Of a DNA stretch of 61,310 bases, positions 5,479-59,318 are shown piece by piece. Below the pieces are notes generated by a model. That model did not search any database. It saw only the letters and a list, made by a program, of their open reading frames with translations, and was not told the origin of the DNA. This DNA comes from Pseudomonadota bacterium (lineage in GTDB: Bacteria; Desulfobacterota; Desulfobacteria; Desulfobacterales; UBA2156). How positions within the stretch are numbered: the stretch's first letter is position 1; the number at the start of each line of letters is the position of its first letter. A program made the position numbers and the translations under genes. The DNA lies in contig JAZDGS010000023.1 in assembly GCA_043806755.1 (NCBI GenBank), positions 1 to 61,310 on the forward strand. Reading direction: 5' to 3'.

Positions 5479-8400
5479 ATGCCGGAAGAGAATCGAAAAA
5501 CAATCAAGCGGAGCAAAAAACGCCTTATTTTCAAAGCTGTTCTTGTATCCGTCTTTTTTATCATCTTTTTTGTCCTGGCGATGCTCGCCGCTCTCCCGTA
5601 TCTGGTATCGACTCAGTATGCTAAATCCCTGGCTCAAACCGCCGCATCCCGTTTGGTCGAAAGAGAGATTCGGCTGGATCGGATCGGATTCAAATGGAGT
5701 CAGGGGATCTTTATTGAGGGGCTTCGATTGTCGGACGACGCAGCGTTTTCAACGTCACCGATGGGAACGATCAAGTCGATCCATCTCAGAATGAATTTTT
5801 TAAAAGCTCTTACCGGACGATTAAACCGTGCCGACCTGGATATCGGAGGGGTGTCGCTTCAGGTGATTCGAAACACCGAAGGGGCGACCAATCTGAACCG
5901 GTTCATTTCAAACCTCAAGAAGGAAAACAATCCTCCAATCCAACAAAAAAAACCCAAAAACGAAAAGCTCCTTTTCATGCCGCTTTCGATCAGGACCGGT
6001 GTCACCATCCGGGATATTTTCATCGGCATCGATGACCGGATGCAACGCCGTCAAATCGAATTTCATCGCGGTTTCGTCAATTTGGATCTCCCCTCCTTTA
6101 ATCAGCCGCTGACCCTGTCGGTCTCATCACAGGTGAACATAGGGAAATGGTCGCTCCCGGAGGTGAAATTAACGATGACAGGGAGCAATATGTTCGATGC
6201 CAGGGGGGAAATCGACCTTCACCGCATCGACATCGATATGGAATTGCAGGCTCCCGGCATTCATGTCAAGGCAAAAGGAAATCCGAACGATGGGAAGATG
6301 TCAGGCCTGTTGCGGGCCGATCTTTCTGATTTTTTTCAAGTCGCATCCCCTTTTTTCCCGAAATCCTTGCAGCCGGAAACGATTCGCGGAACCCTGACAT
6401 GTGAACTGGATGCAAGCAGAATTTCAGCGGCAACGACTTTTTTCGATGTTCGCGTCGACGGAGATCGGATTTACTTAAACAAGAGCTCCTGGAACAGGGA
6501 TATAGGACCGCTTGATTTCCAAATCCACCATAACGGACGTTATGATTCGGAAAAAGGGGCCCTTTTTGTGGAGAGCGGTGAAATCCGGTTCCTCAATGTC
6601 AACCGTTTCTCATGGCACGGACGTCTTTATGACTTAAAGGAATCGAATCCCGGCGCAGCGGTGGAGATCGGGTCGCTTTTACTGGATCTCTCCAGTCTAC
6701 TGAATCCGGCCGTCCCTTTTCTGCCGAAACGGTTTTTTTTGGATATTCCTTCAGGTATTCAAACAAAAGGGCGCATCACATTGGAACATGCTTCCATCAC
6801 CGGAAACCTAAATGGAGGGAACCATCGTGTCCATATCAAAGGGCTTCGGATTGACGTTCCATCCGTTCGAGTCCGCGTGGATTCCCCAAATCCGGTCGAT
6901 CTTTCCATGGATCGTATCGATATTAACTTATTGAGCGTGGAATCCCTGCTAAACGATTTCTTTCCGAACCAGCTCAAGGTGCATTCCCGTTTGGCCATTG
7001 ATCGTCTTGACGTAAAGGGGGAAAACCCTGTTTCAATCAAAGGCTTTCAAATCCCAGAACTTCGCTTTAGCGCAGACAGGATTCGACAAATCAAATCCGT
7101 ACCCCTTGGGATCACTGCTCTTTTTTCTTTAATCGGATCTTTCCGGTGGAATGAGGCGATGATCCCGCCTTTTATCCGAACAGGCCGAACGACCCAACAC
7201 ATCGATATGACCGGAACGATTCTTCCGGGAAATGTGGCAGAGTTGACGTTAAACGGCTATGAAATCATCGCATCAGAGCCGAAGCTTGCATATGGGGATC
7301 TTGCTTTTTTTCCTTCAGTGATTCGGCTTTCATCAAAGGCGAATGGAATCCGGCTGAAACAATTGCATCCCTTAAATGCGGATATCGATCGGATTCAGTC
7401 GAATTTAAAAATCGATGATGATGCCCTGAAGCTCGATCTGGAGGCCGGGCTTTCCGATCTGGGGAAACGCCGGATGGCGAGCACCGGTAAAATGGCGATC
7501 GATTTAAAAAAGCTCCTGTCAAGGATCAGAGGAAATAAGACGGATGAAGGGCGCTTGAGCGGACGGATCGATCTGTTGTGGGATGCGGCAGGGCGGCTTC
7601 CGGCAGATACGAAACCCGCCGATCAAAACCTCCCCCTGGCAATCCTGTCGAATCCGCTTCCTGACCATTTGCATCTCACATGCAGATTGGAAAATATCTC
7701 GTTTGACCGGATATCGGATAAACAGATCCCTTTTCATTTTGGCCCTCTTTCAACCACCATGCCCCTTGAATATACATTCGACGGAAAAACAGGTAAGGGG
7801 AAGATCGGAGCTTCATTTCTGGCAAAAAAAATTGATTCCGGTCTCTTTTTGGGTAAAGAACAACCACTTGCCGGCAAACCTATTGATCTGACGGTGAACA
7901 TTTCCGGAGAGCATCACCGGCTCAACTCGATGGAGCTTGCGCAATCACTCGTTATCGAGCCTTTTGGAATCAGCCAAACCTTCCGATCCTCGATCCATGG
8001 GTTGGAGCGGATTCTTTTTGCAAAAAACGACGTTCCGTTGGTTTCGTGGTTAAACGAGCTAAGCGGAAACGGAAAGGTTACGGTCCGGATTCCGGACGCC
8101 GGCATTCTATCCGGTTTTTTCAACGGGATCCGCCTTCAGGGAAAAATGAGCGCCGAAGCCGAAGCCGAGCTGATCCCTAAAAAGAGCTTGACTGTCAAGG
8201 GGTGGACAGGAAGCGACGGGTTGGATATTACGGTCGGGGAATCCGCCTCGATTGAAGACCTTAACATCAACTTTGGATTTCAAAAACATTATACGGTTTC
8301 CGTCGACCCGCCGGCATCGACGTCAGAAACACGTTTGTCGGTGAAGGTGATGGAAGAAAACCCGTCGGTATCGTCTCATATCAATCCTGAAGGGGATGTT

Positions 8401-9111
8401 ATCTCCTCTCTTTCCGGGCAGTGGCAGAAACGCCTGGGTAAAAATCATACTTTTTCTTTGAATTCCGCGCGGATCGGGAAAGCGCCTCAATCGCTTCATA
8501 TGCACAAAACAGTAGTAGATCTGGAGCTGGAGGAAGGGATTCCGAAGATCACCTATTTCGAATCCGGCCTCCTTGGGGGAGCGATCATCGGCTCGGCATC
8601 CGTTTTCGAAAAAGGGGGGAACCTGTTTCTCCGATTCAGAACCTCCTTCTCTGCGTTAAACCCCGGAAAGCTTCTGCAGGGAATGGACAACAAACCGGAC
8701 AGCGAGGACTTGACGATCAGCGGACGGATATCGGTTTTAGCCCCCCTGTCGGTCCGCTTGCCGTCGATTCTAAAAGAACTCGATCTTGATCTTCAGTTCA
8801 ACCACATCGGCTCCGGCGCCATGAGGGAAATACTCCATATCCTGGATCCTCATGAGCATAACGAAACCATTATATCCATCCGCCGGTTGATTCGCACCGG
8901 GATTCCCAGATGGATTGAAATCAATGTCAAAAACGGAATTTTGTCTCTAAACGGGGAAGTGATCATTAAAGGAGTACCCATAAAAATTCCAAGCCTCGAG
9001 CGCTTGAATCTATCCGATATTTCAGGCCTCGACCGTTACGAAAAAGGACTGAGAGGGCTTCTGCCGCTGATCGATATACTGACACTCGCTTCAAGGCGGA
9101 ATCTGCCCTAA
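5479..9111 (+). CDS. AsmA-like / YdbH-like intermembrane bridge protein
   Basis: 1210 aa; basic N-terminus plus one TM anchor; AsmA-like start (RNTEGATNL), long alternating beta-strand pattern, GLLGG...ISGRI near the C-terminus; lies upstream of a DUF1318-like lipoprotein. Confidence 0.7.
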   Translation: MPEENRKTIKRSKKRLIFKAVLVSVFFIIFFVLAMLAALPYLVSTQYAKSLAQTAASRLVEREIRLDRIGFKWSQGIFIEGLRLSDDAAFSTSPMGTIKSIHLRMNFLKALTGRLNRADLDIGGVSLQVIRNTEGATNLNRFISNLKKENNPPIQQKKPKNEKLLFMPLSIRTGVTIRDIFIGIDDRMQRRQIEFHRGFVNLDLPSFNQPLTLSVSSQVNIGKWSLPEVKLTMTGSNMFDARGEIDLHRIDIDMELQAPGIHVKAKGNPNDGKMSGLLRADLSDFFQVASPFFPKSLQPETIRGTLTCELDASRISAATTFFDVRVDGDRIYLNKSSWNRDIGPLDFQIHHNGRYDSEKGALFVESGEIRFLNVNRFSWHGRLYDLKESNPGAAVEIGSLLLDLSSLLNPAVPFLPKRFFLDIPSGIQTKGRITLEHASITGNLNGGNHRVHIKGLRIDVPSVRVRVDSPNPVDLSMDRIDINLLSVESLLNDFFPNQLKVHSRLAIDRLDVKGENPVSIKGFQIPELRFSADRIRQIKSVPLGITALFSLIGSFRWNEAMIPPFIRTGRTTQHIDMTGTILPGNVAELTLNGYEIIASEPKLAYGDLAFFPSVIRLSSKANGIRLKQLHPLNADIDRIQSNLKIDDDALKLDLEAGLSDLGKRRMASTGKMAIDLKKLLSRIRGNKTDEGRLSGRIDLLWDAAGRLPADTKPADQNLPLAILSNPLPDHLHLTCRLENISFDRISDKQIPFHFGPLSTTMPLEYTFDGKTGKGKIGASFLAKKIDSGLFLGKEQPLAGKPIDLTVNISGEHHRLNSMELAQSLVIEPFGISQTFRSSIHGLERILFAKNDVPLVSWLNELSGNGKVTVRIPDAGILSGFFNGIRLQGKMSAEAEAELIPKKSLTVKGWTGSDGLDITVGESASIEDLNINFGFQKHYTVSVDPPASTSETRLSVKVMEENPSVSSHINPEGDVISSLSGQWQKRLGKNHTFSLNSARIGKAPQSLHMHKTVVDLELEEGIPKITYFESGLLGGAIIGSASVFEKGGNLFLRFRTSFSALNPGKLLQGMDNKPDSEDLTISGRISVLAPLSVRLPSILKELDLDLQFNHIGSGAMREILHILDPHEHNETIISIRRLIRTGIPRWIEINVKNGILSLNGEVIIKGVPIKIPSLERLNLSDISGLDRYEKGLRGLLPLIDILTLASRRNLP

Positions 9112-9145
9112 GCCCTCTTTTGATTGATTTACCTTTTAGATCGCG

Positions 9146-9246
9146 ACCCCTTGAACCCTTGTGGGGTAAAAACCGAACTAAAGTCTTCGCCTAAAGACGA
9201 GGGTTTTCCTGCCTGCAGGCAGGTCTCCCAATCCCTGAAAGGGACA
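9146..9246. repeat. Intergenic cluster of hairpins including the 16-bp perfect palindrome CCTGCCTGCAGGCAGG (REP/IS200-IS605-end-like)
   Basis: Hairpin at 9180-9207 (AAAGTCTTCG...CGAGGGTTTT), perfect palindrome at 9208-9223, TCCC-TGAAA-GGGA at 9232-9244. Confidence 0.55.
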
Positions 9247-9273
9247 ACAAAAAAACGCCGGAAAGGATCGATC

Positions 9274-9855
9274 ATGAAAAAACGATTCATCGTCGTCCTG
9301 GCTCTGCTTTGCGGATGTACGCTGGCAGAGGTTAAGGTGGACGTATTGAGCGAACGGACGGCCCTTGAAAATCAGATTCTCGGGACGTATAACACCCTTG
9401 ACCGTGAGATGTTGCTTCTGGCCTCGGTCCGCAGCGTCGATTCCTCCGGCCGTATCGCATCTCCACAAAAGCAGAGCCGGGAACATCAGGATGCCGTTTC
9501 CGCCATGCAGGTCCAGGCATTTCATTCCGACGATTTGCAGCTCTTTAAACGGCTTCAATGGGTGGGAGAAAACAACCACGGTCTTTTAACCATGTTTCCA
9601 ATGACACGGGAGAATATCCCTGATGATCTAAAGCCCCCTGCGATGCGATTCACCCAAGAAGAGTTCGAATCCGTGGTCTCTCAGATCAATGCCGCCAGAG
9701 AAACCATTATGGCGCGGGTCGTTTCGATGAACGAAACCATACCCGGCTCGGACCTTTCAAAAATCCGTGACATTTTCGGGAAACTCAATGCTGAAAACGC
9801 ACGCCCGGGAGAAAAAATTCAAACCGAAGACGGCAAATGGACAATTAAGAGATGA
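9274..9855 (+). CDS. YdbL/DUF1318-like lipoprotein
   Basis: Likely start at ATG 9274 (AAGGA upstream). Lipobox MKKRFIVVLALLCG-C; motifs RTALENQILG, VGENNHGLL, INAARETIM and GEKIQTEDGKW are typical of DUF1318. Confidence 0.75.
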   Translation: MKKRFIVVLALLCGCTLAEVKVDVLSERTALENQILGTYNTLDREMLLLASVRSVDSSGRIASPQKQSREHQDAVSAMQVQAFHSDDLQLFKRLQWVGENNHGLLTMFPMTRENIPDDLKPPAMRFTQEEFESVVSQINAARETIMARVVSMNETIPGSDLSKIRDIFGKLNAENARPGEKIQTEDGKWTIKR

Positions 9856-12800
9856 AAATCGCGAGTTCCATTTTTTTCATATTCTTTTGGTTACCGGGTA
9901 TTGCGGCGACGGCGGCCGATTCCATCCCCTCCATGCTCAATTCTCCGGTGCAAATCACCGCCGAAGCGGACCCTATCGAATACGCATCGGTTTCCGCGGA
10001 TGGAAAATACCTCGTTTATGTTTCCAGGCGTGAACAGTTCACGGATCTGTGGCTTCGTTCAGCCAACCCTTCGGTGGTCTTTTTCCCGAGACGCCTTACC
10101 GAAGATCCGGCTGAGGAGGCGACCCCCGCCATATCTCCGGATGGACGGTTTGTCGCTTACGTCGGGACCGGATACGATGTCAAGGGCGATATTTATCTTT
10201 TGGATTTAAGAGAGAAACAGCCGACACCCTTGCGTTTAACCGACAGGGAGACCGAAGACGGAGCCCCCTCTTTTTCCAGAGACGGAAGGCGAATCTATTT
10301 TCACCGGAAAAAGCCGGACGACCCGATTCGACGGATCGCCTTTATGGAGATCGGTCCGGAGCGGACCGTGAGTCGCCCGATTCCGCAGGTTCAGACCATA
10401 CCGTTCGATGGCGATGCCGCGTTTCCGTCTGTTTCCCCGGATGGATTCCGGATCGCATTTATCTCCTATCAGACAAGCCCTTCCGGAACCCTATTTGTCT
10501 TAGACTTAAAAACCAACACGGCAGCGCCGCTGACATCGGGACCCTATCCGGATTTTTTCCCCGCCTGGTCCAATGATGGCACATATCTCCTGTTTACCAG
10601 GAACGCATACGACACCAACAGCGACGGCATGATCGATACCAGAGACAACGCGGCCATATTCCGGATCAGTGTCGATGATGCCGAACCACACCCTTATCCA
10701 TTGACATCTGCCCGTTTTTCCTGCTCCCAGCCGATCCCTATCCCCAACGGGTTCTACTTTCTTTCCAACCGAAAAGGGGTGAGCAACGCCTGGTTTCTTC
10801 CCCCCGAAGGAGAGGTCCCGAACAGGGATCATCCCTTGGATCAACTGAATCTTGCCGATCGCATATCCGCGGATCTTCACCGCGATTCTTTTCTTGCGCA
10901 TGCCGCCTACGGCAGGGTTCTGGAACGATATCCAAATCGGGCCGATGTTTCGGCCCCCGCTGCGTATCGCCTCGGCAACTTGTTGTTAAAGATGAATATG
11001 CCCGACGAGGCTGATCATTCATATCAGCGGATCATCGACAGGTATCCCGGCAAGAATCCCGAATCCGATCTTTCGGCAATTCAACAAATCGTCATTCAAA
11101 CCACTCGTCGAATAAAAACCGTCCAAAACGAATCGGACCGGAGCCTCATCCTCCAGGAAGGGATTTCACGACTCAGTGATATCGTCACAGGGAAGGACCC
11201 GTTCATCGTTTCCGGCTCCCGAATTGAACGAGCCAGGCTTCTCATGGAGTTTTCCGGCCGGTCGTCCGATCTTCTTTTAGCGATCCGGTTTACCGAAGAT
11301 GTGATCGGGGACGCGCATTCAGCGCCGGATCAGATTGCCCAAGCCATGGTGATCAAAGGAGATATTTACGCCCGGATCGGAAAAGTTGAGAACGTCTATC
11401 CGATTTACCTTTCCATTCTTAAAACCTATCCCGGAATAGATCCCTGGGCGGATGCCGCGTTGAAGCGTCTGCTGGATCTTGTCATTTCTCAAAAAGCAGC
11501 CTCTTTTTCAGGCGACACGATCGGCCTGTTCCGGAAAATCGCGGATGACAACCGGAAGGAGGTTCCGATCCTTTCCGCGGGTGCATTGAACCGGATCGGC
11601 GACCTGTACTATGAAGCCGGCGAATGGTCGAAAGCCAAGAGCGCTTACGAACAGGTCCTCGAACAATTTCCAACTTCAACGCCTCAGACGGCGGCCGCCA
11701 GGCTGGCCCTTGCCGAGATCTTATATAAGGAAGAGAGGTTTCGCTCAGCCCTTGATCTGTATGAAAAAGAGATCCGAAATCGGCCTGAAGACGATCGAAT
11801 CTACGCTCTTGCCCGCAGAGGGTATATTCAAAAATCGATTGAAGGTGGAAAATACCTTTTTCAACTGGGAGAAATCCACACGGCAAGAAAAGTATTTAAG
11901 GAGATGATCGATTTTGACGATACCATCGTCGCCGCTCATAGGGGATACATTCAGTGCGCTGCCGCCCAACAGGATCTGAAAGGGGTGTTGAGATCCTACC
12001 GGGTGAAAATGAAGAAAAATCCGAATGATGCCGTCGCCGTTTATGCGGTTGCCTTGATCCTCACCTACCTCGAAGATCAAAGATCCCTTGAAGAAGCGAA
12101 AGCCCTGTTATTGCGGGCGATCACCATCAACGGTCAGATTGAATATTTTCATCAGACCCTTGGATACATCCAGGAAGTTCTTGAAACGGCATTCCACCGC
12201 TCCGGCCGGCTGGAGACGGCGCTGGATTCCTATCAAAAAGCCTATTTTCTAAACGACCCGGTACAAAACCCGTCCAATCATGCTGATCTACTTCTCAATC
12301 TGGGAAACGTTTATTTTCTTTTGGGGCAAAATGCCAAGGCCTTCCATTTTTTCAGCGAACGCCTCAATACCGGAAAACCGTTTCCTCACTCCAGCGCTGC
12401 GGTTCTATTTTACAAGCGGCTGGGGATGAGCGCTTTTCATGTGAGGGAAAGCGAAAAAACCATCAACGCGTTTGAAAAAGCGATCGAATTGATCGACAAG
12501 GGGGTGAACCAACCGGAGGTCTCACATTACCTGGATCGAAATCACCGGTATGTGATGGATCAGATCCTTCCGGCCGTTGAACAAAACGGTCGTCTCTCCG
12601 GGAAGGTGAAAGAGATTGCCGAACAACAGTCCGAAACCGGCCAGTCCCTTTCCGGGCTTATTCAACATTATGCCCCTCCTCCATCAACGGAATGGCGGGT
12701 ATTTCAGAAAGGCGTCGAAAAACTGATCGATAATCAAGAAAAGATCAACGACAAGGCGATCCTTCTCCTGAAGGGACGGCCGATCCAAGGCGCTTCCGGT

Positions 12801-15800
12801 CGGCCGGATCCGGAAGAGGCGCAACGGATGATGACGGTGATGACATCAAAGGCCAAAGACGCCGTGCGGTTTTCCGAAAAAATGATCGGCCTGAAAGCCG
12901 AACTTCTTGATCGACTTGGGCTGGTATATCAGGACTCAGGTGCCTTTGAAAAGGGCGTCGCTGCTTTCGAAAAAACGATGGCGTTAAACGAGAACCTGGG
13001 TCAGTTCAAAAACCTTTCCAGGAATAAACGATCCATCGCCTATAACCGCTACCTTCTGGCGAACACCCTTTCGGGTGATCGCCGGAGAGCGGAATTAAGA
13101 AAGGCCATAACCGATTTTCAGGAGACCCTTTCCCTCTTGGACCGCTACGGCGTTCCGGATCCATCCGAAACCGGCGGAAAGGGATTGCAGCAGATCGACC
13201 TGCGGATGGCCGTTGATGAAAGCGATACGACGGAAGCGGGAAAAGGATTTTCGAAAGAGCAGGAAAAACGGCTCGCTGAATCCTTTATTGCACGGATCAG
13301 CCTCGAGTTGGGAGATGTCAATTCAGCCGAAAAAGCGCTCATGGAGCAATTGGCGTTCTATCAAACCAAACAACAGATCTCGGACCGGGATGCCTTCGGC
13401 GTTTCCCTCCTGTATCATCGGGCAGGCCATATTAACAGCGCCAAAGGAGATTGGACAGGGGCATTTAACCATTTCAGGCAATCGGCTGTCCTGTCGCTCC
13501 AGATTAAAAATACCGCCAACGCCGCCATTAGTGCCGTCAACATGGCCAAAGCCCTCTCAATTCTTTTCGTTGCCGGGTCCGAACACATTCAATTTGAAAG
13601 AGAACTTGAATCGATCGACAATGAGGTGCTTTATCTCTTTTCTCAACCGGCTCTAGCGCCGCCCAAACCGGCTCAGGCCGATTATCACAATGCATTGGGA
13701 TTCTATCTGGCTAGACACAATCGGATGCCCAAATCCGATCTGAAACATGCCGCCACTGCCGCACGGCTTTTGCAAAGAGCCGGAATCCATTTTGCCGCCG
13801 GAATCCGGTTGCTCGAAGGAGAGGCGACGATCCGCAGCCGGAAGGAGATCGCTCTTTATTCAAGCCTGAACCTCAATATGGCCGCAATCGCACTTGATAT
13901 GGGCGATATGTCGACCGCCTATGCGCTTTACGAAAAAGCACTTGCTCTATCCGAGGCCGGACTTTTGCCGGACATCCGCTGGCGGGCCCTGATCGGACTT
14001 GGGCGACCGGATGAAGCCATCAAGGTCTTAGAATCGATTACCATTCTGCGCGCCGGATGTTCCGAGGGCGAAATCATTGAGGCGTTTGAGAAAAAGGCGG
14101 CTGATCTTATTGCTGAAAAACGGTTTGAAGAGGCGTTCAATTGGATTGAACGGCTATCTGATATCGAACGGTTTCATCGCCTGGCATCATTGATCAATCC
14201 GTTTTCGGAAAATGAACGGCTGCTGTTTAGAAAGATCTTCACTCAGCTGAACCGGATTCATGAACTAAAACGCGAGATTTCCTCACCGGACCCCCAGGGG
14301 AGACGACTTTTTTCCCAACAACTGAAGCTCGAAGAAGCACATCTCCAGGACCTTCTGGGTAAAAATAATAAAAATATACCTGATCTGATCAGGCTTCTCC
14401 CGGAACAGAAATTTCAAGAGCAGGCCATGATGCTGGTCGGTATCGCTTCTGAAGCTGAATCCGCCGCGGACGACTATGTTCAACACGGGAGGCCGGCAGA
14501 CCTTCTTATGAAATACGAAAAACTGGTTGCCCAATATAAGGAACAAATAGAGAGCGCTTTGGCATCTGCAGAGAGTGATTCAAGGTCAAACCCCATCAGC
14601 CTTTTCGGCCCACAGCGTTTTGAGGCCGTAGATGTCATGGATCATCTTCCCGAAGGGACGACATTTATCCGGCTATTTCAATTCAAGCATGGTCAACGCT
14701 CTTCGGAAAAGCGTGCACTCTCCTTCATTCTGGATCCGGATCGGTTAGGCATCTCCTTTTGGGGTTCCATTTCAGAGGCGCTATCGAATTCGAAGATTCA
14801 AAAAACAGGCAACCATCCGGTCTACATCGCCTATGACCATCTCGACGAACTGTCGCCCGAAGCAATCGAGGCGGCGAATCCGGATGCATTCGTATTAAGT
14901 GCCGGCCATTTCATCCGATCTGCGATCAGCAAAAAGCCGTTTAAGCGATCCGTTTTTGCGATTCCGGAGTTATCACAACCGTTTCGTGCTTACGAGGTTT
15001 TGAAAGAACCGGATCCTTCAGATCCGGAGTCGGACCGCTTTCCGCAAGGATTTCATACCCTGATCCTTTCCGCACCGGTCTCACTTACCCATACGGTTCC
15101 AACGCGTCCGGGAGAATCGGCAATCCCTTCTGCCGTCGTGGATCGTGAGAGTGGAAAACGAACGGACATCTTCGAACTTCTCGGCCGTCTTTCCCAAAGT
15201 TCGCTTTCCATTGTTTCAAATGCATCCCCTGGAAATGCTTACTGGGTCGGACATTTATTTTCGATTTTCGGCTGCCCCACCATCATCCTTGCGTTAACAC
15301 CCGATGCCGACGGCGCATTCGTCAACTCCTTTTTAGATCGATATTCGCAGAGTTCGGCGCTCGAGGCGATCCGTGGAGCCAAAGCGCCTCCGGGCGGGAA
15401 AAGCCATTGGCTCCTTCTCGGGAATCCCGGCATGTCGCCTGGGGATGCAACAGTGTTTGCCCGCAAGCATTTTATCGCCTATGTTCAAAAAGCGAAAAAA
15501 GCTTACGAAAATCAAGCTCCGGCCGAAGCCCTTTTGCATTTTGAAAACGCCATCCTGATCGGATCCGAAGCGGATTCATTCGAGACTTATCGCCCTGCCC
15601 TTTACCAGTATGCCCGTGAGAGCGCTCATCAGGCGGGAAACCGGGAAAAGGCCCTGTATTACGCACAGGCCCTTGTTCAATGGCTGGGCGGGAAAAAATC
15701 CGGCACCGACGCCCACGCCGAAGCGCTTCTCCGACTGGGCCTTCTCCAGGCTCAATCGGAGATGTTTAACACGGCGGTGGAAACGTTGAACCGATCCCTT

Positions 15801-18317
15801 GGCATTTACGCCACTCTAAACATGACGCCCCGGCAGATCGAAGCCCTATCAGGACTAGGCGTTGTTTCCGAACAGGCAACCGAATATGATCGCGCGCTCT
15901 CTTTTTTTCAGTCGGCCGCCTCCTTAAGCCGGTCTTCCGATCAGAGAGACCATCTGGCGCGGCAATATACGAACATCGGACGGCTCCACGATCTTCGGTT
16001 GAGCAACTACATCCCGGCAATTGAAAATTATCAAATAGCCCTCTCGCTTTACCGGGAAATGAATACCGGAAACCAAAAAAGAGCGGATATATCCCAATCC
16101 CTGCTGAACATTGGACGCTGCCATCGCCTCCTCGGCAACCTGATCCAGGCTGAGAAGACCTTTGACGAGGCTCTGTCCAGCATCGGGCCTGAATCCTTGC
16201 ACCCGGAACTGTATACAAAAATCGTCATCGAACAGGCCAATAACGCGTGGTACAGGGCCAACTATGAAGACGCCTTTAAGAAACAACGCACCGCCCTGCG
16301 GATCGCACGGGAAAAAAATCTACCGTTACTGCAGGTCGTTTCTCTGAATACGGCCGGTCTTTTGTGGTGGACTCTTGGGGAAAATCAAAAAGCTCTTGAC
16401 GAACTGAAGGAAGCGCTCTCTTTGGCTGAAACACTTCGGGTTCGGGAGGATGAAATTGCCACAACGTTGAATAATATCGGATTCGTGCGCCGTGAAATGG
16501 GACATTACCAGGAAGCGCTAAAGTACTTTGATGAAGCCATCACCATCGACCGGAGGCTGAAATCAAGATGGGCCTTGGCCTACGATTTTCGGCATAAAGG
16601 AGTGACGTTGGCCAGAATGGGGGACATTCAAAGAGCCCTTCCCCTGTTAAAAAGCGCTCTCGAAGAAGCGGCGGCTATCGGAAACCGGATCAACGAATCG
16701 AGATCCCAGCTCGATTTGGGAGATGCCTTCTTTGCCGGCGGAAACTTTCGTGAGGCGGAGACCGCCTATCAGGCGGCATTGTCCCTTTCGCGCTCCATCG
16801 CTTTGCGTGAGGTCGAATGGCGCGCTTTATATGGACTCGCTATGCTCCGGCTGCCCGGAAAGCCGGATGAAGCAAAACCTCTTCTGATTGAGGCGATGGA
16901 TATGATCGAAACGATCCGTTCGAATATCCGGTTGTCCCAGCTTAAAGACAGCTTCCTCACTAATAAACTGGCTGTTTATGAAACGCTTTGCCGGCTTTTT
17001 GCCGACTCCGGCGATGCCGAAAAAGCATTCGAGATCGCCGAGCGCTCCCGTTCCCGAAATTTCATCGATCTTTTGGGAAATCAACGGCTGACCTTAAGCC
17101 GCACCGTCGATCAGCAGTTGTATCAGCGACAGTTGAAGCAAAACGAGCAGATAGAAGAACTGACGGCCCGCCTTCTGCAGGTGCAAAATTCCAATGATCG
17201 GAGAAGATATGAAGCCGCCCTTGCTTCGGCAAAACGTGAATTGAATACCCTGATGCTTGAAATTCAATCCAAAAACCCTCAACTGGGATCCCTGGTATCG
17301 GTTGAGCCGATGAGTGCGAAGGAACTCGTCAAGATCGTCGAACCGGATACGGCGCTTCTTGATTATTATATTCTGAATGAAGAGCTGTTCTGCTGGCTTA
17401 TTCAGTCGAATGGAATCCGCTTATTCCGCACTCCCATAAACCGGGAAGTACTGGGATCGTCCATACTCGATTATCGCCGGCGTATCCAAAACCTGGAACC
17501 TTTCGAAGACCTCTCGAAACTTCTTTTCAAAAAGCTCCTTTCGCCGGTTTCCAAGCATCTTGACGGAATCAAGATGCTTGGAATTATTCCTTACGGGTAT
17601 CTTCACTACCTGTCGTTCGCCACGTTATCAGATGGAAACGATTATCTGATCGATCGCTTTCCGCTGTTTTATCTTCCGAGCGCCGGGGTGTTCAAATACA
17701 CGATGGCCAAACGGGTCGCTCAAAAAAAATTAAGGGTACTCGCAATCGGAAACCCGGATCTCGGAGATCCTGCCTTTGACCTCCCCTTTTCCGAATATGA
17801 GGTTCACTCCATGAAGTGGAATTTCCCGGACATCACCATTTTGACCCAAGAACGTGCGACCGAGAAATGGGTCGTTGACAATATCGGAAAATTTGGAATA
17901 ATTCACCTGGCATCGCACGGGGAATTTAATCCCATTAATCCCCTTTTTTCATCGGTTAAACTTGCCAGGGATATCGAACGGGATGGGAACCTGGAAGCCG
18001 CTGAAATTTTTGGACTCAATATCGATGCGGATATCGTGGTCTTAAGCGCCTGTCAGACAGGACTTGGAAAGGTGACTCAAGGAGACGATGTGATCGGATT
18101 GACCCGGGCGTTTCTCTATGCCGGAACCCATACCCTTATATCCAGTCTATGGCGAGTCAGCGATATTTCAACCGCCATATTGATCAAAGAATTCTATCGC
18201 CAATATGCTCAGACCGCTAAAGGAATCGGGTTAAGGAATGCCGTATTACATGTTAAAAACCGCTACCCGCATCCGGGATACTGGGGAGCGTTTACCCTGA
18301 TTGGAGACTATTACTGA
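9852..18317 (+). CDS. Giant exported PD40/TolB beta-propeller + TPR + CHAT (caspase-like) protease, 2821 aa
   Basis: Signal-peptide-like N-terminus; repeated P(A/S)xS(P)DG PD40 motifs; many TPRs; C-terminal CHAT with IHLASHG (His2689) and VVLSACQTG (Cys2734), SLWRVSD and HPGYWGAF. ATGA overlap with the upstream gene. Confidence 0.9.
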   Translation: MKIASSIFFIFFWLPGIAATAADSIPSMLNSPVQITAEADPIEYASVSADGKYLVYVSRREQFTDLWLRSANPSVVFFPRRLTEDPAEEATPAISPDGRFVAYVGTGYDVKGDIYLLDLREKQPTPLRLTDRETEDGAPSFSRDGRRIYFHRKKPDDPIRRIAFMEIGPERTVSRPIPQVQTIPFDGDAAFPSVSPDGFRIAFISYQTSPSGTLFVLDLKTNTAAPLTSGPYPDFFPAWSNDGTYLLFTRNAYDTNSDGMIDTRDNAAIFRISVDDAEPHPYPLTSARFSCSQPIPIPNGFYFLSNRKGVSNAWFLPPEGEVPNRDHPLDQLNLADRISADLHRDSFLAHAAYGRVLERYPNRADVSAPAAYRLGNLLLKMNMPDEADHSYQRIIDRYPGKNPESDLSAIQQIVIQTTRRIKTVQNESDRSLILQEGISRLSDIVTGKDPFIVSGSRIERARLLMEFSGRSSDLLLAIRFTEDVIGDAHSAPDQIAQAMVIKGDIYARIGKVENVYPIYLSILKTYPGIDPWADAALKRLLDLVISQKAASFSGDTIGLFRKIADDNRKEVPILSAGALNRIGDLYYEAGEWSKAKSAYEQVLEQFPTSTPQTAAARLALAEILYKEERFRSALDLYEKEIRNRPEDDRIYALARRGYIQKSIEGGKYLFQLGEIHTARKVFKEMIDFDDTIVAAHRGYIQCAAAQQDLKGVLRSYRVKMKKNPNDAVAVYAVALILTYLEDQRSLEEAKALLLRAITINGQIEYFHQTLGYIQEVLETAFHRSGRLETALDSYQKAYFLNDPVQNPSNHADLLLNLGNVYFLLGQNAKAFHFFSERLNTGKPFPHSSAAVLFYKRLGMSAFHVRESEKTINAFEKAIELIDKGVNQPEVSHYLDRNHRYVMDQILPAVEQNGRLSGKVKEIAEQQSETGQSLSGLIQHYAPPPSTEWRVFQKGVEKLIDNQEKINDKAILLLKGRPIQGASGRPDPEEAQRMMTVMTSKAKDAVRFSEKMIGLKAELLDRLGLVYQDSGAFEKGVAAFEKTMALNENLGQFKNLSRNKRSIAYNRYLLANTLSGDRRRAELRKAITDFQETLSLLDRYGVPDPSETGGKGLQQIDLRMAVDESDTTEAGKGFSKEQEKRLAESFIARISLELGDVNSAEKALMEQLAFYQTKQQISDRDAFGVSLLYHRAGHINSAKGDWTGAFNHFRQSAVLSLQIKNTANAAISAVNMAKALSILFVAGSEHIQFERELESIDNEVLYLFSQPALAPPKPAQADYHNALGFYLARHNRMPKSDLKHAATAARLLQRAGIHFAAGIRLLEGEATIRSRKEIALYSSLNLNMAAIALDMGDMSTAYALYEKALALSEAGLLPDIRWRALIGLGRPDEAIKVLESITILRAGCSEGEIIEAFEKKAADLIAEKRFEEAFNWIERLSDIERFHRLASLINPFSENERLLFRKIFTQLNRIHELKREISSPDPQGRRLFSQQLKLEEAHLQDLLGKNNKNIPDLIRLLPEQKFQEQAMMLVGIASEAESAADDYVQHGRPADLLMKYEKLVAQYKEQIESALASAESDSRSNPISLFGPQRFEAVDVMDHLPEGTTFIRLFQFKHGQRSSEKRALSFILDPDRLGISFWGSISEALSNSKIQKTGNHPVYIAYDHLDELSPEAIEAANPDAFVLSAGHFIRSAISKKPFKRSVFAIPELSQPFRAYEVLKEPDPSDPESDRFPQGFHTLILSAPVSLTHTVPTRPGESAIPSAVVDRESGKRTDIFELLGRLSQSSLSIVSNASPGNAYWVGHLFSIFGCPTIILALTPDADGAFVNSFLDRYSQSSALEAIRGAKAPPGGKSHWLLLGNPGMSPGDATVFARKHFIAYVQKAKKAYENQAPAEALLHFENAILIGSEADSFETYRPALYQYARESAHQAGNREKALYYAQALVQWLGGKKSGTDAHAEALLRLGLLQAQSEMFNTAVETLNRSLGIYATLNMTPRQIEALSGLGVVSEQATEYDRALSFFQSAASLSRSSDQRDHLARQYTNIGRLHDLRLSNYIPAIENYQIALSLYREMNTGNQKRADISQSLLNIGRCHRLLGNLIQAEKTFDEALSSIGPESLHPELYTKIVIEQANNAWYRANYEDAFKKQRTALRIAREKNLPLLQVVSLNTAGLLWWTLGENQKALDELKEALSLAETLRVREDEIATTLNNIGFVRREMGHYQEALKYFDEAITIDRRLKSRWALAYDFRHKGVTLARMGDIQRALPLLKSALEEAAAIGNRINESRSQLDLGDAFFAGGNFREAETAYQAALSLSRSIALREVEWRALYGLAMLRLPGKPDEAKPLLIEAMDMIETIRSNIRLSQLKDSFLTNKLAVYETLCRLFADSGDAEKAFEIAERSRSRNFIDLLGNQRLTLSRTVDQQLYQRQLKQNEQIEELTARLLQVQNSNDRRRYEAALASAKRELNTLMLEIQSKNPQLGSLVSVEPMSAKELVKIVEPDTALLDYYILNEELFCWLIQSNGIRLFRTPINREVLGSSILDYRRRIQNLEPFEDLSKLLFKKLLSPVSKHLDGIKMLGIIPYGYLHYLSFATLSDGNDYLIDRFPLFYLPSAGVFKYTMAKRVAQKKLRVLAIGNPDLGDPAFDLPFSEYEVHSMKWNFPDITILTQERATEKWVVDNIGKFGIIHLASHGEFNPINPLFSSVKLARDIERDGNLEAAEIFGLNIDADIVVLSACQTGLGKVTQGDDVIGLTRAFLYAGTHTLISSLWRVSDISTAILIKEFYRQYAQTAKGIGLRNAVLHVKNRYPHPGYWGAFTLIGDYY

Positions 18318-18330
18318 ACGCGTACATCCA

Positions 18331-18879
18331 ATGGATTTTTTGAAGAGGAACGCCATGCGTCGAAACATGTTTACCGGATGGGGGCTTTTTTTATTGGTTC
18401 TTTTTGCTTTTGGCCGGGCAGCGGCCGGAGAGAAGGGGTGGGTCTCCTCTTATGATGCCAAATTAAAAGCCGAAAAAAGCGCTTCATCTGAAACCGTCGC
18501 CACCCTCCCCCTTGGGACGGAACTTCTCGTTTTTTCTTTTGACGACCGCTGGTACCATGTTTCCACGGCCGACGGAAAAAAAGGATTTTTGTACCGAGGC
18601 AGGGTTTCCTTTGAACCGCCCGCCGTCGCTCAGAGCAAGGGTGGGGAAGACCCTCTGGGAAAATTGCTGAGCGGCGTTACAGACAGCGGTATCAAAGGGG
18701 ATAGTGCTGATACGTCAAGAAGCATCCGGCCGCTTACGGTTGAAAAGGAGAAAAAAGGGGAATCCAGGGATGAACAAGTCCTTCAGGAGGAACTCAACCA
18801 TCTCCTTTCCCGGAGAATTACAAGCTCCCAGATCGACCGGTTTCTTCAGGAGGGAAAAGTCGGCGAGTATGGGGAGTAG
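18331..18879 (+). CDS. Exported SH3b-like domain protein
   Basis: Signal peptide (FLLVLFAFGRAAA); SH3b-like pattern AKLKAEKSASSETVATLPLGTEL...WYHVSTADGKKGFLY. Start is uncertain (18331 or 18355). Confidence 0.75.
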   Translation: MDFLKRNAMRRNMFTGWGLFLLVLFAFGRAAAGEKGWVSSYDAKLKAEKSASSETVATLPLGTELLVFSFDDRWYHVSTADGKKGFLYRGRVSFEPPAVAQSKGGEDPLGKLLSGVTDSGIKGDSADTSRSIRPLTVEKEKKGESRDEQVLQEELNHLLSRRITSSQIDRFLQEGKVGEYGE

Positions 18880-19797
18880 GTGAAACAGATGAACAACTTT
18901 ACTACAATTTCAAAAACCCGCCGGCGTTTTCTGAAAATGATCGGATTTGCCGTTGTTATGGCTTCCGTTCCATCCGATGCCGTGGACCTGTTAAAATTGC
19001 TTGATCCTGAAGACAAGTCCGGCGACCAGGAAAAAATAAAAAAAATTTTGGAAGGTGCGAAAAGCATCCTCGGGAGCGCCACGGAAATCGATTACGAATC
19101 AGAGCTGACGATCGGGAAAAGCCTTGCCGTCGAAGGGTTCAAACGATACGGGCTTCCCGTGAAAGACAACGAGCTTCAGCAATACGTCGGCCTTGTAGGG
19201 AATTCCGTAGCGAGAAATGCCGGTCGTCCCAATATACCCTATTTCTTCGTTGCCGTTCAAAGCCAATTATACAATGCGTTCGCCGGCCCGGGAGGAATCA
19301 TATTCATTACCTCGGCGCTTCTTCAGGGGATGCGGGATGAATCCCAGTTGGCTGCGGTTCTGGCACACGAAGTCGCCCATGTCGGTCATAAGCATGCCCT
19401 AAAATCCATTCAAAGGGCCAAATTCTTCGACGGCATCGGCAAAATCACCGTGGCTACGGCAAAAAAAGATAAGAAAAAAGAATATTCGGAAATGATGGAC
19501 TCCCTTCAAACCGTTCTTTTCGACAAAGGGCTGGACCAACAAATGGAATATGAAGCGGACCGATCAGGTATGAACATCTCCTATCGGACCGGATACGATC
19601 CTTCGGGGATGCTCTCGGTTCTGGAAATGCTTAAAAAGAAAGAAGACACGTCGGAAAAAAAGGGGACGTGGTTTTCAACCCATCCGCCGCTTTCACAACG
19701 GATCGGCCGATGCCATACCGAGATGAACCGTTACTCGGATGCCCGTTCTCTTGCAACCGTCCCGGAGCGATTCATCAAATATACGAAAAAGCTATAG
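18880..19797 (+). CDS. M48 family metalloprotease with a Tat-type signal
   Basis: TRRRFLK twin-arginine motif; NAFAGPGG, LAHEVAH (HExxH), EYEAD, GYDP and STHPP motifs. GTG start directly after the upstream TAG. Confidence 0.9.
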   Translation: MKQMNNFTTISKTRRRFLKMIGFAVVMASVPSDAVDLLKLLDPEDKSGDQEKIKKILEGAKSILGSATEIDYESELTIGKSLAVEGFKRYGLPVKDNELQQYVGLVGNSVARNAGRPNIPYFFVAVQSQLYNAFAGPGGIIFITSALLQGMRDESQLAAVLAHEVAHVGHKHALKSIQRAKFFDGIGKITVATAKKDKKKEYSEMMDSLQTVLFDKGLDQQMEYEADRSGMNISYRTGYDPSGMLSVLEMLKKKEDTSEKKGTWFSTHPPLSQRIGRCHTEMNRYSDARSLATVPERFIKYTKKL

Positions 19798-19877: not shown

Positions 19878-21023
19878 ATGACGCAAAAAAACGCAAGCAA
19901 GGATCCTGGACGTGTTTACGAATCCCGGTTGAAATCCCTTCGAAAACTGATGCGCCAGGTCCATCTGGATGCATTCATGGTCCTTATTCCCGAAAACCGA
20001 CGATATTTGAGCGGGTTTATCGGAGAAGACACCCAGTTTGACGAGTCCGCCGGCGCCCTGTTGATCACCGGATCGACACTTTTGCTGGCCACCGATTCCC
20101 GTTATGAGACCCAGGCGGCATACGAAGCCCCCTTGTATCGGATTTTTTGTTACAAGGAAGGATTGGCAAAAGCGTTCCCTGAAATCCTCGGAATTCTCAA
20201 AGCCAGACGGATCGGGTTCGAGAGCATCCGGATATCGGTTAGAGATCACGGGCGGATTGTCGAAGAGATCCGATCGAAAAAAATTCCTGTTGAACTGGTT
20301 CCGATCGAAGATCTGGTTGAACGCCGGCGGCTCATCAAATCAAAAGCGGAAATCGACGCCATCCGAAGCGCCCTGAACGTGGCGGAGTCGGCCTTACTCT
20401 CTGTTTCCGGTCTTATCCGCCCCGGAGTAATGGAAACACAAGCCGCGTGGTCCCTTGAAAAAGAGATGAGGGAAGCCGGTGCGGAAAGCCTTTCCTTTCC
20501 GGTGATCGTCGCTTCAGGGCCGAACAGCGCCCTTCCCCATGCCATACCGGGGAAACGGTGTTTCAAGAGCGGAGAACCGATCCTTATCGACTGGGGGGCC
20601 AGATTAAACGGTTATTGCTCCGACATCTCCAGAACCGTTTTTATCGGAAAGCCTGACCCGGTATTCAAAAAAATGTTTGATACCGTTTCAGATGCCCAAA
20701 AAAAGGCCATCGATGCCATCCGGCCCGGAGTCAGTTCCAGGGTCATTGACCGGATCGCAAGAAGTCACATCGAAAAAAAGGGGTTTAAGGGCCGTTTCGG
20801 GCATGGACTGGGACACGGAGTCGGCCTGGCGATTCACGAAGGACCAAGGATAAACCCGCTCAAGGATACCCCCCTGATGCCTGGAATGGTATTTACCGTT
20901 GAGCCGGGTATTTATATTCCCGGTTTGGGCGGGGTTCGGTTGGAAAACATGGTTGTAGTTCGAAAAGAAGGCGCCGAAACCCTGAATCGTCTGGGCCTAC
21001 CCTATTCTTTTGCGGGCTTCTGA
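19878..21023 (+). CDS. Xaa-Pro aminopeptidase (M24B family)
   Basis: NRRYLSGF, IDWGA, YCSDISRT, HGLGHGVGLAIHE, TVEPGIY and GVRLEN motifs. Confidence 0.93.
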   Translation: MTQKNASKDPGRVYESRLKSLRKLMRQVHLDAFMVLIPENRRYLSGFIGEDTQFDESAGALLITGSTLLLATDSRYETQAAYEAPLYRIFCYKEGLAKAFPEILGILKARRIGFESIRISVRDHGRIVEEIRSKKIPVELVPIEDLVERRRLIKSKAEIDAIRSALNVAESALLSVSGLIRPGVMETQAAWSLEKEMREAGAESLSFPVIVASGPNSALPHAIPGKRCFKSGEPILIDWGARLNGYCSDISRTVFIGKPDPVFKKMFDTVSDAQKKAIDAIRPGVSSRVIDRIARSHIEKKGFKGRFGHGLGHGVGLAIHEGPRINPLKDTPLMPGMVFTVEPGIYIPGLGGVRLENMVVVRKEGAETLNRLGLPYSFAGF

Positions 21024-59252: not shown

Positions 59253-59318
59253 CCTGCCCCCCCGCGGGTCGTATCGGACATCACTTGTAAATGACTTACG
59301 AGCAAAGCGTTTTCTAGA

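Follow-up and report, generated by a model that had tools for sequence, protein, structure and literature searches.

The co-inheritance, in a group of bacteria of the sulfate-reducer type, of genes for an AsmA-like bridge protein, a DUF1318 lipoprotein, a giant exported protein and two helpers points, from the sequence evidence, to an undescribed cell-envelope system. They lie in the window, the whole 61,310-nucleotide stretch of DNA that was analysed. We consider it probable that the genes encode an envelope system, chromosomal and vertically kept, in which a core trio is joined by an accessory pair and the giant serves as a protease and scaffold dedicated to a trans-periplasmic bridge. The core trio would consist of an AsmA-like groove protein in the inner membrane, an outer-membrane-type lipoprotein with a YdbL fold, and a Sec-exported PD40-TPR-CHAT giant; in the accessory pair, an SH3 protein that is exported and an M48 zinc protease would act as a single unit. 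An earlier note on this DNA knew of no account of such a combination, and our literature search likewise found it nowhere described in print.

Five ORFs, all on the plus strand and in the same orientation, occupy positions 5479–19797. Their translations and Pfam matches, counted above curated cut-offs, agree with the domains that the earlier note had read from the letters.

5479..9111, + strand: AsmA-like protein, 1,210 aa, predicted to be inner-membrane-anchored with a repeating beta-groove (Pfam AsmA, AF2, Foldseek)
9274..9855, + strand: DUF1318 lipoprotein, 193 aa (Pfam DUF1318, lipobox, AF2, Foldseek, hhalign)
9852..18317, + strand: giant exported PD40-TPR-CHAT protein, 2,821 aa (ORF, Pfam, full-length orthologues)
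9852..9917, + strand: Sec-type signal peptide at the start of the giant, residues ~1–22, ending A-A-T-A-A (sequence reading)
9939..10811, + strand: PD40 (TolB-like) beta-propeller of the giant, about residues 30–320 (Pfam PD40)
10872..17441, + strand: long TPR-type helical region of the giant, residues 341–2530 (segment-wise Pfam scan, conservation profile)
17511..18308, + strand: CHAT caspase-like protease domain of the giant, residues 2554–2819 (Pfam CHAT, dyad)
18331..18879, + strand: exported SH3-domain protein, 182 aa (Pfam SH3_3)
18880..19797, + strand: M48 zinc metalloprotease, 305 aa (Pfam Peptidase_M48, motifs)

The tight packing claimed for the last four genes holds at every junction. 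An ATGA at 9852–9855 is common to the lipoprotein stop and the giant start, 13 nt separate the giant stop codon (18315–18317) from the first ATG of the SH3 gene (18331), and the TAG that ends the SH3 gene (18877–18879) abuts the GTG that starts the M48 gene (18880). Because they overlap, translational coupling of the lipoprotein and giant genes is suggested. Translation of the lipoprotein most probably begins at ATG 9274 and not at the first in-frame TTG, at 9124. Export signals, assessed by eye and by simple pattern counts over orthologues, bear out the view that all five products carry export or membrane signals, which supports their being envelope proteins. The neighbours of the locus are housekeeping genes (DnaE, IMPDH, S1, AlaRS, RecA, LptC/LptA).

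In the AsmA-like protein, Pfam AsmA matches the N-terminus only (residues 23–163; 41.2 bits versus a cut-off of 29.8), and a hydrophobic N-terminal 17-mer is found by pattern count in all 56 orthologues. The AF2 model of residues 11–1210 (mean pLDDT 80.9) has a helix at its N-terminus and then some 55 long strands. Among its matches Foldseek ranks the LPD-3/BLTP1 complex first (9cap_A, prob 0.96) and also returns the Atg2 N-terminal domain (6a9e_A, prob 1.00). The 1,210-aa protein is thus modelled as a repeating beta-groove, as had been anticipated. The last 130 residues hold 15 of the 24 invariant alignment columns, and this strongly conserved C-terminus is the likely docking site of the putative bridge. 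Since TamB-family proteins are also present in three genomes (G010, G011, G155), the AsmA-like module is an extra rather than the general lipid route. The majority of genomes in the order manage without it.

The lipoprotein has a lipobox (L12-C13-G14-C15), a conserved N-terminal extension (residues 16–87) and a DUF1318 domain (residues 88–193; Pfam 34.1 bits versus a cut-off of 27). C15 is invariant in 56 sequences, and a strict lipobox followed by C-T occurs in 78 of 81 lipoproteins, the remaining three reading x-G-C-T-L. The AF2 model (mean pLDDT 83.2) superposes on the crystal structure of E. coli YdbL (28oj; Foldseek TM 0.87, target-normalised, rmsd 2.7 Å), and hhalign pairs residues 88–192 with YdbL at 83% probability; the C-terminal half is accordingly modelled as a YdbL fold. 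The available text of a preprint (bioRxiv 10.64898/2026.03.16.712125) names R61 and N72 of YdbL as two of three residues that hydrogen-bond the YnbE helix, and in the alignment these candidate helix-binding residues fall on R142 and N153, both invariant across the lipoproteins.

By analogy with E. coli YdbH-YnbE-YdbL, the AsmA-like protein and the lipoprotein may form a trans-periplasmic bridge that transports lipid, to which the lipoprotein would contribute an outer-membrane anchor and a YdbL-like helix-binding module. The resemblance that the earlier note drew to this system stands in part. As far as the available texts describe the E. coli system (PMC11126948; bioRxiv 10.64898/2026.03.16.712125), the two share an AsmA-like groove gene directly upstream of an outer-membrane-type lipoprotein, together with the DUF1318/YdbL fold. 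However, sequence orthology of the AsmA-like protein to YdbH is undetectable (hhalign probability 1%) and a search of five genomes found no YnbE-family gene, so the analogy draws on the fold and the DUF1318 partner only. The conserved extension of about 70 aa resembles YnbE in its lipobox alone, and the YdbL-fold domain behind it is lipid-anchored, whereas E. coli YdbL is soluble. The annotated E. coli locus also lacks both a giant CHAT protease and SH3-M48, which here are co-inherited with the bridge genes.

The giant has full-length orthologues in many species (36–92% identity) and matches PD40 (97.3 bits), many TPR families and CHAT (186.7 bits versus a cut-off of 24). Its predicted signal peptide, on which the claim of export depended, recurs in pattern counts: 49 of 51 giants have a hydrophobic N-terminus ahead of a conserved Q-I-T motif, and the two exceptions have over-long called starts. 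Scanned separately, residues 1–340 give four PD40 repeats (116.8 bits); a segment-wise Pfam scan returned no family match for residues 1481–1780. In a profile of 45 giants, conservation peaks in the CHAT domain. The proposed dyad lies at the named residues, His2689 (codon 17916–17918) and Cys2734 (codon 18051–18053), each at least 97% identical in these giants, and the domain appears catalytically intact. Separase and Craspase (Csx29) likewise fuse a helical-repeat scaffold to a clan CD caspase-like domain and are TPR-CHAT proteases regulated by bound partners; unlike the giant, they are cytoplasmic, much smaller and without a link to envelope genes. The NCBIfam Csx29 model matches the giant weakly (43.5 bits versus a cut-off of 300) and does not place it in that family. 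A precedent for a periplasmic TPR-CHAT protein with a His-Cys dyad is Myxococcus DdvA which, in the available text (PMC11506125), is about 1,000 aa long, combines a transmembrane helix with a cytoplasmic zinc anti-sigma domain, and has an ECF sigma partner controlling CBASS/CRISPR. The giant, in contrast, is 2,821 aa long, starts with a signal of the cleavable type, includes a PD40 propeller and lacks a sigma partner in its neighbourhood.

We propose that the giant is a periplasmic scaffold and protease for the bridge, with propeller and TPR surfaces that would bind the bridge or other envelope components and a CHAT domain that may cleave a specific partner. E. coli offers a precedent: according to the available preprint text (10.64898/2026.03.16.712125), YdbL that has no YnbE bound to it is degraded by DegP, a protease of the periplasm.

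The giant could also be the client of the other proteins. The AsmA-like protein and the lipoprotein would then form a TAM-like device that places or anchors it at the outer membrane or the cell surface, and SH3-M48 would mature it. Co-inheritance and adjacency fit this reading equally well, the AsmA-like protein of the cluster is an extra paralogue alongside TamB, and TamB, itself AsmA-like, was first described in protein assembly. Nevertheless we judge it unlikely: the giant has an ordinary Sec-type signal, Pfam finds in it no beta-barrel, autotransporter or sorting domain, and PD40 and TPR modules are typical of soluble periplasmic proteins.

It is similarly doubtful that the giant is mainly a structural connector of the Tol-Pal/CpoB kind between outer membrane, wall and inner membrane, with a CHAT domain that serves only for self-processing and an adjacent AsmA-like module that takes part in one shared envelope process, for instance division or constriction of the outer membrane. 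TolB and CpoB do share a periplasmic PD40 propeller and short TPR modules with the giant, whose N-terminus matches the NCBIfam TolB propeller model (65.7 bits) and whose TPR parts match YbgF/CpoB, BamD and PilW; a TPR block at residues ~600–850 is its best-conserved non-catalytic part. Yet the TolB score is well under its cut-off of 343 and the others are far below theirs, the modules sit within one giant protease, and Tol-Pal genes are neither adjacent nor recurrent in the neighbourhoods of 80 loci. That the catalytic domain and its dyad are the most conserved part argues that proteolysis is central to the function of the giant.

In our preferred reading, of a bridge with a dedicated protease, SH3-M48 would provide a second proteolytic step, downstream of the first or parallel to it. 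The SH3 protein (Pfam SH3_3, 32.1 bits versus a cut-off of 27) has a hydrophobic N-terminus in 22 of 23 cases by pattern count, a conserved linker motif A-D-T-S-R-S (nt 18706–18723) whose S131 and R133 are invariant among 21 aligned homologues, and, at the C-terminus, some 50 aa that are also conserved. The protease (Peptidase_M48, 109.5 bits versus a cut-off of 20.3) carries a twin-arginine signal, RRRF (nt 18919–18930), an HEVAH motif (nt 19366–19380) and a downstream E-Y-E-A-D. Of 22 M48 proteins, 16 show the twin-arginine pattern; the other six are three SH3-M48 fusions with a Sec-type signal, one distant paralogue, one protein with RR in another context and one with a Sec-type signal. BepA and LoiP, M48 proteases that act in envelope quality control in the periplasm, share the M48 fold with HExxH, but the scores are far below their cut-offs (BepA equivalog, the best match, 96.2 versus 570; LoiP 43.1 versus 365), and the protein here has a twin-arginine-type signal, no TPR domain and no lipobox. 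It also differs in its obligate SH3 partner: SH3 lies directly upstream of M48 in all five unlinked M48 loci that have upstream sequence, and the two are fused in three loci (L118 and L147, as one 410-aa protein, and L091).

CHAT proteases act in type III-E CRISPR, and the giant could be a periplasmic TPR-CHAT sensor that detects a phage or competitor protein, with M48 and the bridge carrying out envelope remodelling or self-damage. Such detection has been proposed for DdvA, which the available text links to phage defence (PMC11506125), and a system present in just ~11% of sampled genomes of the order would suit it. We consider this very unlikely, given the housekeeping surroundings of the locus, a PADLOC search that returned only generic TPR models for the giant and no match for the other four proteins, the good conservation of the proteins (lipoprotein identity 54–65% among the 80 best loci), and the neighbourhoods of 80 loci, where sigma/anti-sigma pairs, nucleases and other effectors do not recur.

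Co-occurrence in other genomes, which the earlier note had made decisive, was found both in phyletic profiles and in neighbourhoods. In one sample of 301 genomes of the order, the same for all four genes profiled, the giant is present in 33 (~11%), the lipoprotein and the AsmA-like protein in 31 each and the M48 orthologue in 22, every holder of these three being among the 33 holders of the giant, and 268 genomes have none of the four; related genomes in the sample mean that these counts overstate independence. Presence is patchy in concert within families (one of five genomes for all four genes in f10, two of seven for the trio in f23), and one genome that is 98% complete (G003) lacks all four although two of the same genus (G005, G007) carry the block.

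The neighbourhood survey, anchored on the lipoprotein, kept 80 species loci from 189 relatives. Where at least 1.5 kb of sequence precedes the lipoprotein gene, the AsmA-like gene is its immediate upstream neighbour in 66 of 70 loci; where at least 2 kb follows it, the giant comes directly next in 61 of 71. Of 41 loci that extend 1.1 kb or more past a complete giant, 29 have an M48-like gene after it and 12 do not. Within 10 kb of these 80 loci, no further gene is seen repeatedly. Distant lipoprotein homologues (L163, L164; 40–42% identity) adjoin neither an AsmA-like protein nor a giant. Collectively, the profiles, the neighbourhoods in many species and the SH3-M48 fusions support a conserved gene combination rather than a chance neighbourhood. 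That adjacency and co-distribution merely reflect joint inheritance in related lineages, with no functional link, is highly improbable: although all holders so far are Desulfobacterota-type genomes of one phylum, most of one order, synteny in the family of the window reaches unrelated flanks (GAF, pepP) and the block is split in several genomes, the profiles coincide even in families with patchy presence, the block is kept while its flanks change between families (Lon, DHFR and TrmO in L020), genes persist after unlinking, SH3 and M48 are fused in three loci, and the lipoprotein and giant genes overlap.

The idea of five genes in one assembly holds for their co-inheritance, but SH3-M48 was not found, at the threshold used, in 11 of the 33 giant holders, about a third, and three modules (AsmA-like plus lipoprotein, giant, SH3 plus M48) are unlinked in several genomes. 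These modules occupy three separate loci in G035, and likewise in G155. The giant stands alone in six loci (L018, L019, L059, L063, L064, L068), and such giants are found in no fewer than three separate parts of the giant tree. Genomes in which the block is split retain its pieces elsewhere.

The block consists of five genes on the forward strand of the window, whose products have the following Pfam matches above curated cut-offs.

Genes of the block
5479-9111, + strand: AsmA-like ORF (Pfam AsmA, N-terminus only)
9274-9855, + strand: DUF1318 lipoprotein ORF (Pfam DUF1318)
9852-18317, + strand: giant ORF (Pfam PD40, TPR and CHAT)
18331-18879, + strand: SH3 ORF (Pfam SH3_3)
18880-19797, + strand: M48 ORF (Pfam Peptidase_M48)

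These coordinates bear out the junctions described in the earlier note (an ATGA overlap, a short gap and a TAG-GTG contact): the lipoprotein gene ends and the giant gene begins within one shared ATGA at 9852-9855, 13 nt separate the giant stop from the SH3 gene, and the SH3 TAG abuts the M48 GTG directly at 18879/18880. The 162-nt spacer between the AsmA-like and lipoprotein genes holds a perfect 16-nt palindrome, CCTGCCTGCAGGCAGG, at 9208-9223. The remaining window is ordinary chromosome, with genes for DnaE, IMPDH, ribosomal protein S1, AlaRS, RecA and a KdsA-LptC-LptA group. The row of KdsA-type, KdsC-type, LptC and LptA genes at 58419-60992 implies LPS synthesis in this organism and thus an outer membrane, which is consistent with an envelope reading of the block. 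A gene for a XerC/XerD-type tyrosine recombinase after pepP (21023-21946) is syntenic in the nearest relatives (loci L017 and L021) and looks like a housekeeping recombinase rather than a mobile-element marker.

Of 301 sampled genomes from the order, 33 carry the giant (E ≤ 1e-100), representing 21 of 156 genera. The lipoprotein (E ≤ 1e-5) and the AsmA-like protein (E ≤ 1e-10) each occur in 31 genomes and the M48 orthologue (E ≤ 1e-60) in 22; all of these holders fall within the 33 giant holders, and all four genes are missing from the other 268 genomes. As for exceptions among the AsmA-like protein, the lipoprotein and the giant (the trio), one genome that is 65% complete (G108) has the giant without a lipoprotein or AsmA-like match, G220 is without an AsmA-like match, and G302 is without a lipoprotein match. 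Presence within families is patchy, and jointly so, the by-family denominators being identical for all four gene counts: one of five genomes in family f10 for all four genes, and two of seven in f23 for the trio. Genome G003 (98% complete) is without all four, and G005 and G007 of the same genus carry the block. A clean deletion of the block between the same flanks in G003 was considered and rejected: pepP has different neighbours there, so a deletion scar cannot be shown. Because the genomes are related, we attach no probability to the co-occurrence counts. We conclude that the data establish a co-inherited envelope gene set, not its mode of action.

The order AsmA-like, lipoprotein, giant, SH3, M48 is found at eight of ten giant-orthologue loci, the giant standing alone at the other two. 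Among 14 further giant loci, five have the full block and four the giant alone; one each has lipoprotein-giant-SH3-M48 behind a contig start, AsmA-lipoprotein-giant, and lipoprotein-giant, one ends at a contig edge, and one is a giant fragment. The flanks vary by family (GAF and pepP in the window's family; Lon, DHFR and TrmO in locus L020). A scan with the lipoprotein alignment, one genome per species, kept the best 80 of 189 relatives' loci. Where these could be tested, the lipoprotein gene has the AsmA-like gene as its upstream neighbour in 66 of 70 loci and the giant as its downstream neighbour in 61 of 71; of 41 complete giants, 29 have an M48-like gene next. At loci titled Desulfovibrionales and Desulfatiglandales, the proteins are much more divergent and the gene order is kept. 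Loci L080 and L114, from records titled Desulfosudis oleivorans, have the full block. Clustering of ORFs of at least 90 aa within 10 kb of the 80 loci gave no sixth conserved gene, only known genes and antisense shadow frames.

Breaks in the block fall between three modules: AsmA-like plus lipoprotein, giant, and SH3 plus M48. The three lie at three loci in genome G035, and are dispersed and all retained in G155. On a midpoint-rooted FastTree phylogeny of 45 giants (LG plus gamma, 2,673 well-filled columns, support values not considered; L061, where the contig is cut, unlabelled), the six giants that stand alone occupy at least three separate places. This fits an ancestrally linked set, repeatedly unlinked and then retained, and co-inheritance is demonstrable even where some genomes have the genes physically apart. 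At loci L130 (19435-20592) and L141 (15731-16921), whose records are titled Desulfatiglandales and strain NaphS2, the place behind the giant that SH3-M48 takes at other loci is filled by a dCache-domain protein.

The AsmA-like protein matches PF05170 at residues 23-163 only (41.2 bits; cut-off 29.8), and a pattern count found a hydrophobic 17-mer anchor at the N-terminus of all 56 orthologues. Its AF2 model (residues 11-1210, 51-sequence alignment, mean pLDDT 80.9) is composed of an N-terminal helix (model residues 3-33) followed by about 55 long strands. Among solved structures, Foldseek ranks LPD-3/BLTP1, a bridge-like lipid transfer protein, first (9cap_A, prob 0.96), and it matches the N-terminus to the N-terminal domain of Atg2 with prob 1.00; TM-scores are low (0.06-0.18), as is expectable for long bent rods. 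By its strands and matches, this 1210-aa protein folds as a repeating beta-groove, contrary to the refuting outcome named in the earlier note. TamB-family proteins are also present in genomes G010, G011 and G155, so the AsmA-like protein of the cluster is an additional paralogue.

In E. coli, YdbH (AsmA-like), YnbE (a lipoprotein) and YdbL (a soluble DUF1318 protein) form or modulate an intermembrane bridge (PMC11126948; bioRxiv 10.64898/2026.03.16.712125). The three genes are encoded together and, as at that locus, the DUF1318/YdbL gene adjoins an AsmA-like gene in the window and in the 66 of 70 loci. No sequence orthology of the AsmA-like protein to YdbH was detectable (hhalign probability 1.1%, 51-sequence alignment A2). 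The YnbE family (PF13617) was matched in none of five genomes (the window's genome G000, G003, G010, G011 and G155) and in 2 of 14 controls, E. coli among them.

The lipoprotein matches PF07027 (34.1 against a cut-off of 27), and the sole good solved-structure match of its AF2 model (pLDDT 83.2) is the E. coli YdbL crystal 28oj (Foldseek; target-normalised TM 0.87, rmsd 2.7 A). Alignment to YdbL by hhalign covers residues 88-192 with a probability of 83%. Residues 16-87 are an added, very conserved extension, modelled as a low-confidence segment after the Cys and then helices 27-50 and 69-93. The mature protein has about 179 residues, unlike the soluble periplasmic YdbL form of about 90, and its YdbL-fold domain would be membrane-tethered. 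The full-length family is small, with 244 representatives at E ≤ 1e-10 among 1.84 billion. Of 81 lipoproteins, 78 have a strict lipobox with Cys-Thr and three have x-G-C-T-L; the lipidation-site Cys15 does not vary among 56 sequences, and Thr follows it in the window. In E. coli, the residue after the lipidated Cys guides membrane targeting, and by this sorting rule the sequence suggests that the lipoprotein may be targeted to the outer membrane.

Three YdbL residues, R61 and N72 among them, are reported to hydrogen-bond the YnbE helix (bioRxiv 10.64898/2026.03.16.712125). R61 and N72 align with R142 and N153 of the lipoprotein, both invariant, and YdbL E60 aligns with Ala; given the two aligned and invariant positions, a YdbL-type pocket seems to be kept in this family. 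Sequence lends no support to a YnbE-YdbL fusion: when the lipoprotein family is aligned to E. coli YnbE with hhalign, only the lipobox pairs, and it is the one feature in which the two resemble each other. The architecture seen in the model (lipidated Cys, short segment, helix, YdbL fold) would be compatible with such a fusion. Predicted as a complex, giant residues 40-860 and lipoprotein residues 16-193 scored 0.00 against a mark of 0.32, an uncontrolled result that says nothing either way on binding.

A segment-wise scan of the giant gave the following map.

Domains of the giant, in residues
N-terminus: signal sequence
About 30-320: PD40 propeller
341-2530: TPR-type repeats, with a stretch (1481-1780) without family match
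2554-2819: CHAT domain

The giant is among the largest CHAT proteins, and its caspase-type dyad is intact. The CHAT domain (PF12770, 186.7 bits) is the best-conserved part across 45 giants, with His2689 and Cys2734 at least 97% identical, and is predicted to be catalytically competent. Export signals were assessed as simple feature counts over orthologues, and a hydrophobic N-terminus is present in 49 of 51 giants, the two misses being over-long start calls. DdvA is the only characterised periplasmic TPR-CHAT protein that we found, and it differs in architecture and context (PMC11506125); unlike DdvA, the giant has a signal-type sequence as its sole N-terminal feature, with no cytoplasmic anti-sigma domain or transmembrane helix. 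No sigma gene, such as the cognate ECF sigma gene of DdvA, recurs within 10 kb of the best 80 of 189 loci.

A second, degenerate CHAT-like domain at about residues 1760-1860 of the giant (window about 15129-15431) was rejected: the segment, from the giant's family-less middle, lines up in register with CHAT's C-terminal half, without the dyad, and hhalign against true CHAT gives 1.9%, which is not significant. The window's genome also encodes a second, much shorter TPR-CHAT protein, an 895-aa open frame on contig C25 (498-2909) with 38% identity to the giant's CHAT. In genome G076 the giant is split on contig C1: the piece with residues 174-2246 (2058254-2064526) lies about 4 Mb from the piece with residues 2537-2820 (6044876-6047496), and SH3 and M48 come after the latter. 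Either a rearrangement or an error of assembly accounts for the split.

The M48 protein (PF01435, 109.5 bits) has HEVAH at residues 163-167 and a downstream E-Y-E-A-D at 223-227. It scores below the equivalog cut-offs of BepA (96.2 vs 570) and LoiP (43.1 vs 365), and it has neither a TPR domain, a BepA trait, nor a lipobox, a LoiP trait. Of 23 SH3 proteins, 22 have a hydrophobic N-terminus. The M48 proteins show a twin-arginine pattern in 16 of 22 cases, and three of the six without it are SH3-M48 fusions with a Sec-type signal. At all five unlinked M48 loci having upstream sequence, the gene immediately before M48 is SH3. The two are one protein at loci L118, L147 and L091, which runs from a Sec-type signal through SH3 and the conserved linker motif to an M48 domain that has no Tat signal of its own. 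An invariant S-x-R sits inside a conserved A-D-T-S-R-S linker motif of the SH3 protein, whose C-terminal region is also conserved; the fused proteins keep D-T-S-R-S in the stretch that joins SH3 to M48. The D-x-x-R in this linker may resemble separase-type sites.

We infer all functional steps of the system. The joint reading that we favour, and to which we give somewhat better than even chances, is that the AsmA-like protein and the lipoprotein would form a YdbH/YnbE/YdbL-like bridge, the giant would be a bridge-associated periplasmic scaffold and protease, and SH3-M48 would act as a second proteolytic unit. A role in cargo assembly is unlikely, and so is a Tol-Pal-like scaffold. Sensing or defence in the manner of DdvA is very unlikely, given the housekeeping context of the locus and the result of PADLOC 2.0, in which the giant matches two generic TPR models only and the other four proteins match nothing. 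Mere co-descent of the genes is likewise very improbable. Beside the favoured reading of a bridge with two proteolytic partners stands a more detailed mechanism, which we consider decidedly unlikely: the giant would be a separase-like licensing protease that docks on the AsmA-like protein and lipoprotein, cuts the D-T-S-R-S linker of SH3 upon an envelope signal and frees or activates M48, which would remove or remodel the lipoprotein's tethered YdbL-like cap and thereby turn the flow of lipid towards the outer membrane on or off. If true, this would be the first known dedicated proteolytic cascade controlling a bacterial bridge-like lipid transporter.

The gene set bears on the open question of how Gram-negative bacteria control phospholipid traffic via AsmA-like bridges. 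YdbL, itself subject to DegP proteolysis, is the only known modulator of the E. coli YdbH-YnbE bridge (10.64898/2026.03.16.712125). Here, a YdbL-fold domain, tethered as its sequence predicts, is co-inherited with two putative dedicated periplasmic proteases. An AsmA-like bridge with a DUF1318 partner is already known; the dedicated protease partners are undescribed. Searches over the main full text of openly available papers returned no paper with both "AsmA-like" and "CHAT" and one unrelated paper with DUF1318; in broader searches we recognised nothing relevant among the matches listed. If the link is functional, the block would offer a natural system for directly testing whether proteolysis regulates an intermembrane bridge. 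It would also add a second periplasmic CHAT protease to the one known, and an obligate, so far unstudied SH3-M48 protease pair.

The system occurs in a narrow bacterial group, most of it known only from metagenome-assembled genomes; related records are titled uncultured Desulfobacterales and allied orders. In a phylum-wide sample the lipoprotein was found in 8 of 361 genomes, the window's own included, and five of the seven other holders have AsmA-like, lipoprotein and giant in a row. The remaining two have a more distant lipoprotein (40-42% identity) and different neighbours. In this more distant branch of the long DUF1318 lipoprotein, at loci L163 (4789-6386) and L164 (4996-6702), neither an AsmA-like protein nor a giant CHAT protein lies beside the lipoprotein, and a conserved 341-349-aa ORF without a Pfam family comes next. 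At L164, a 2,896-aa gene of GH94 glucan-synthase type follows.
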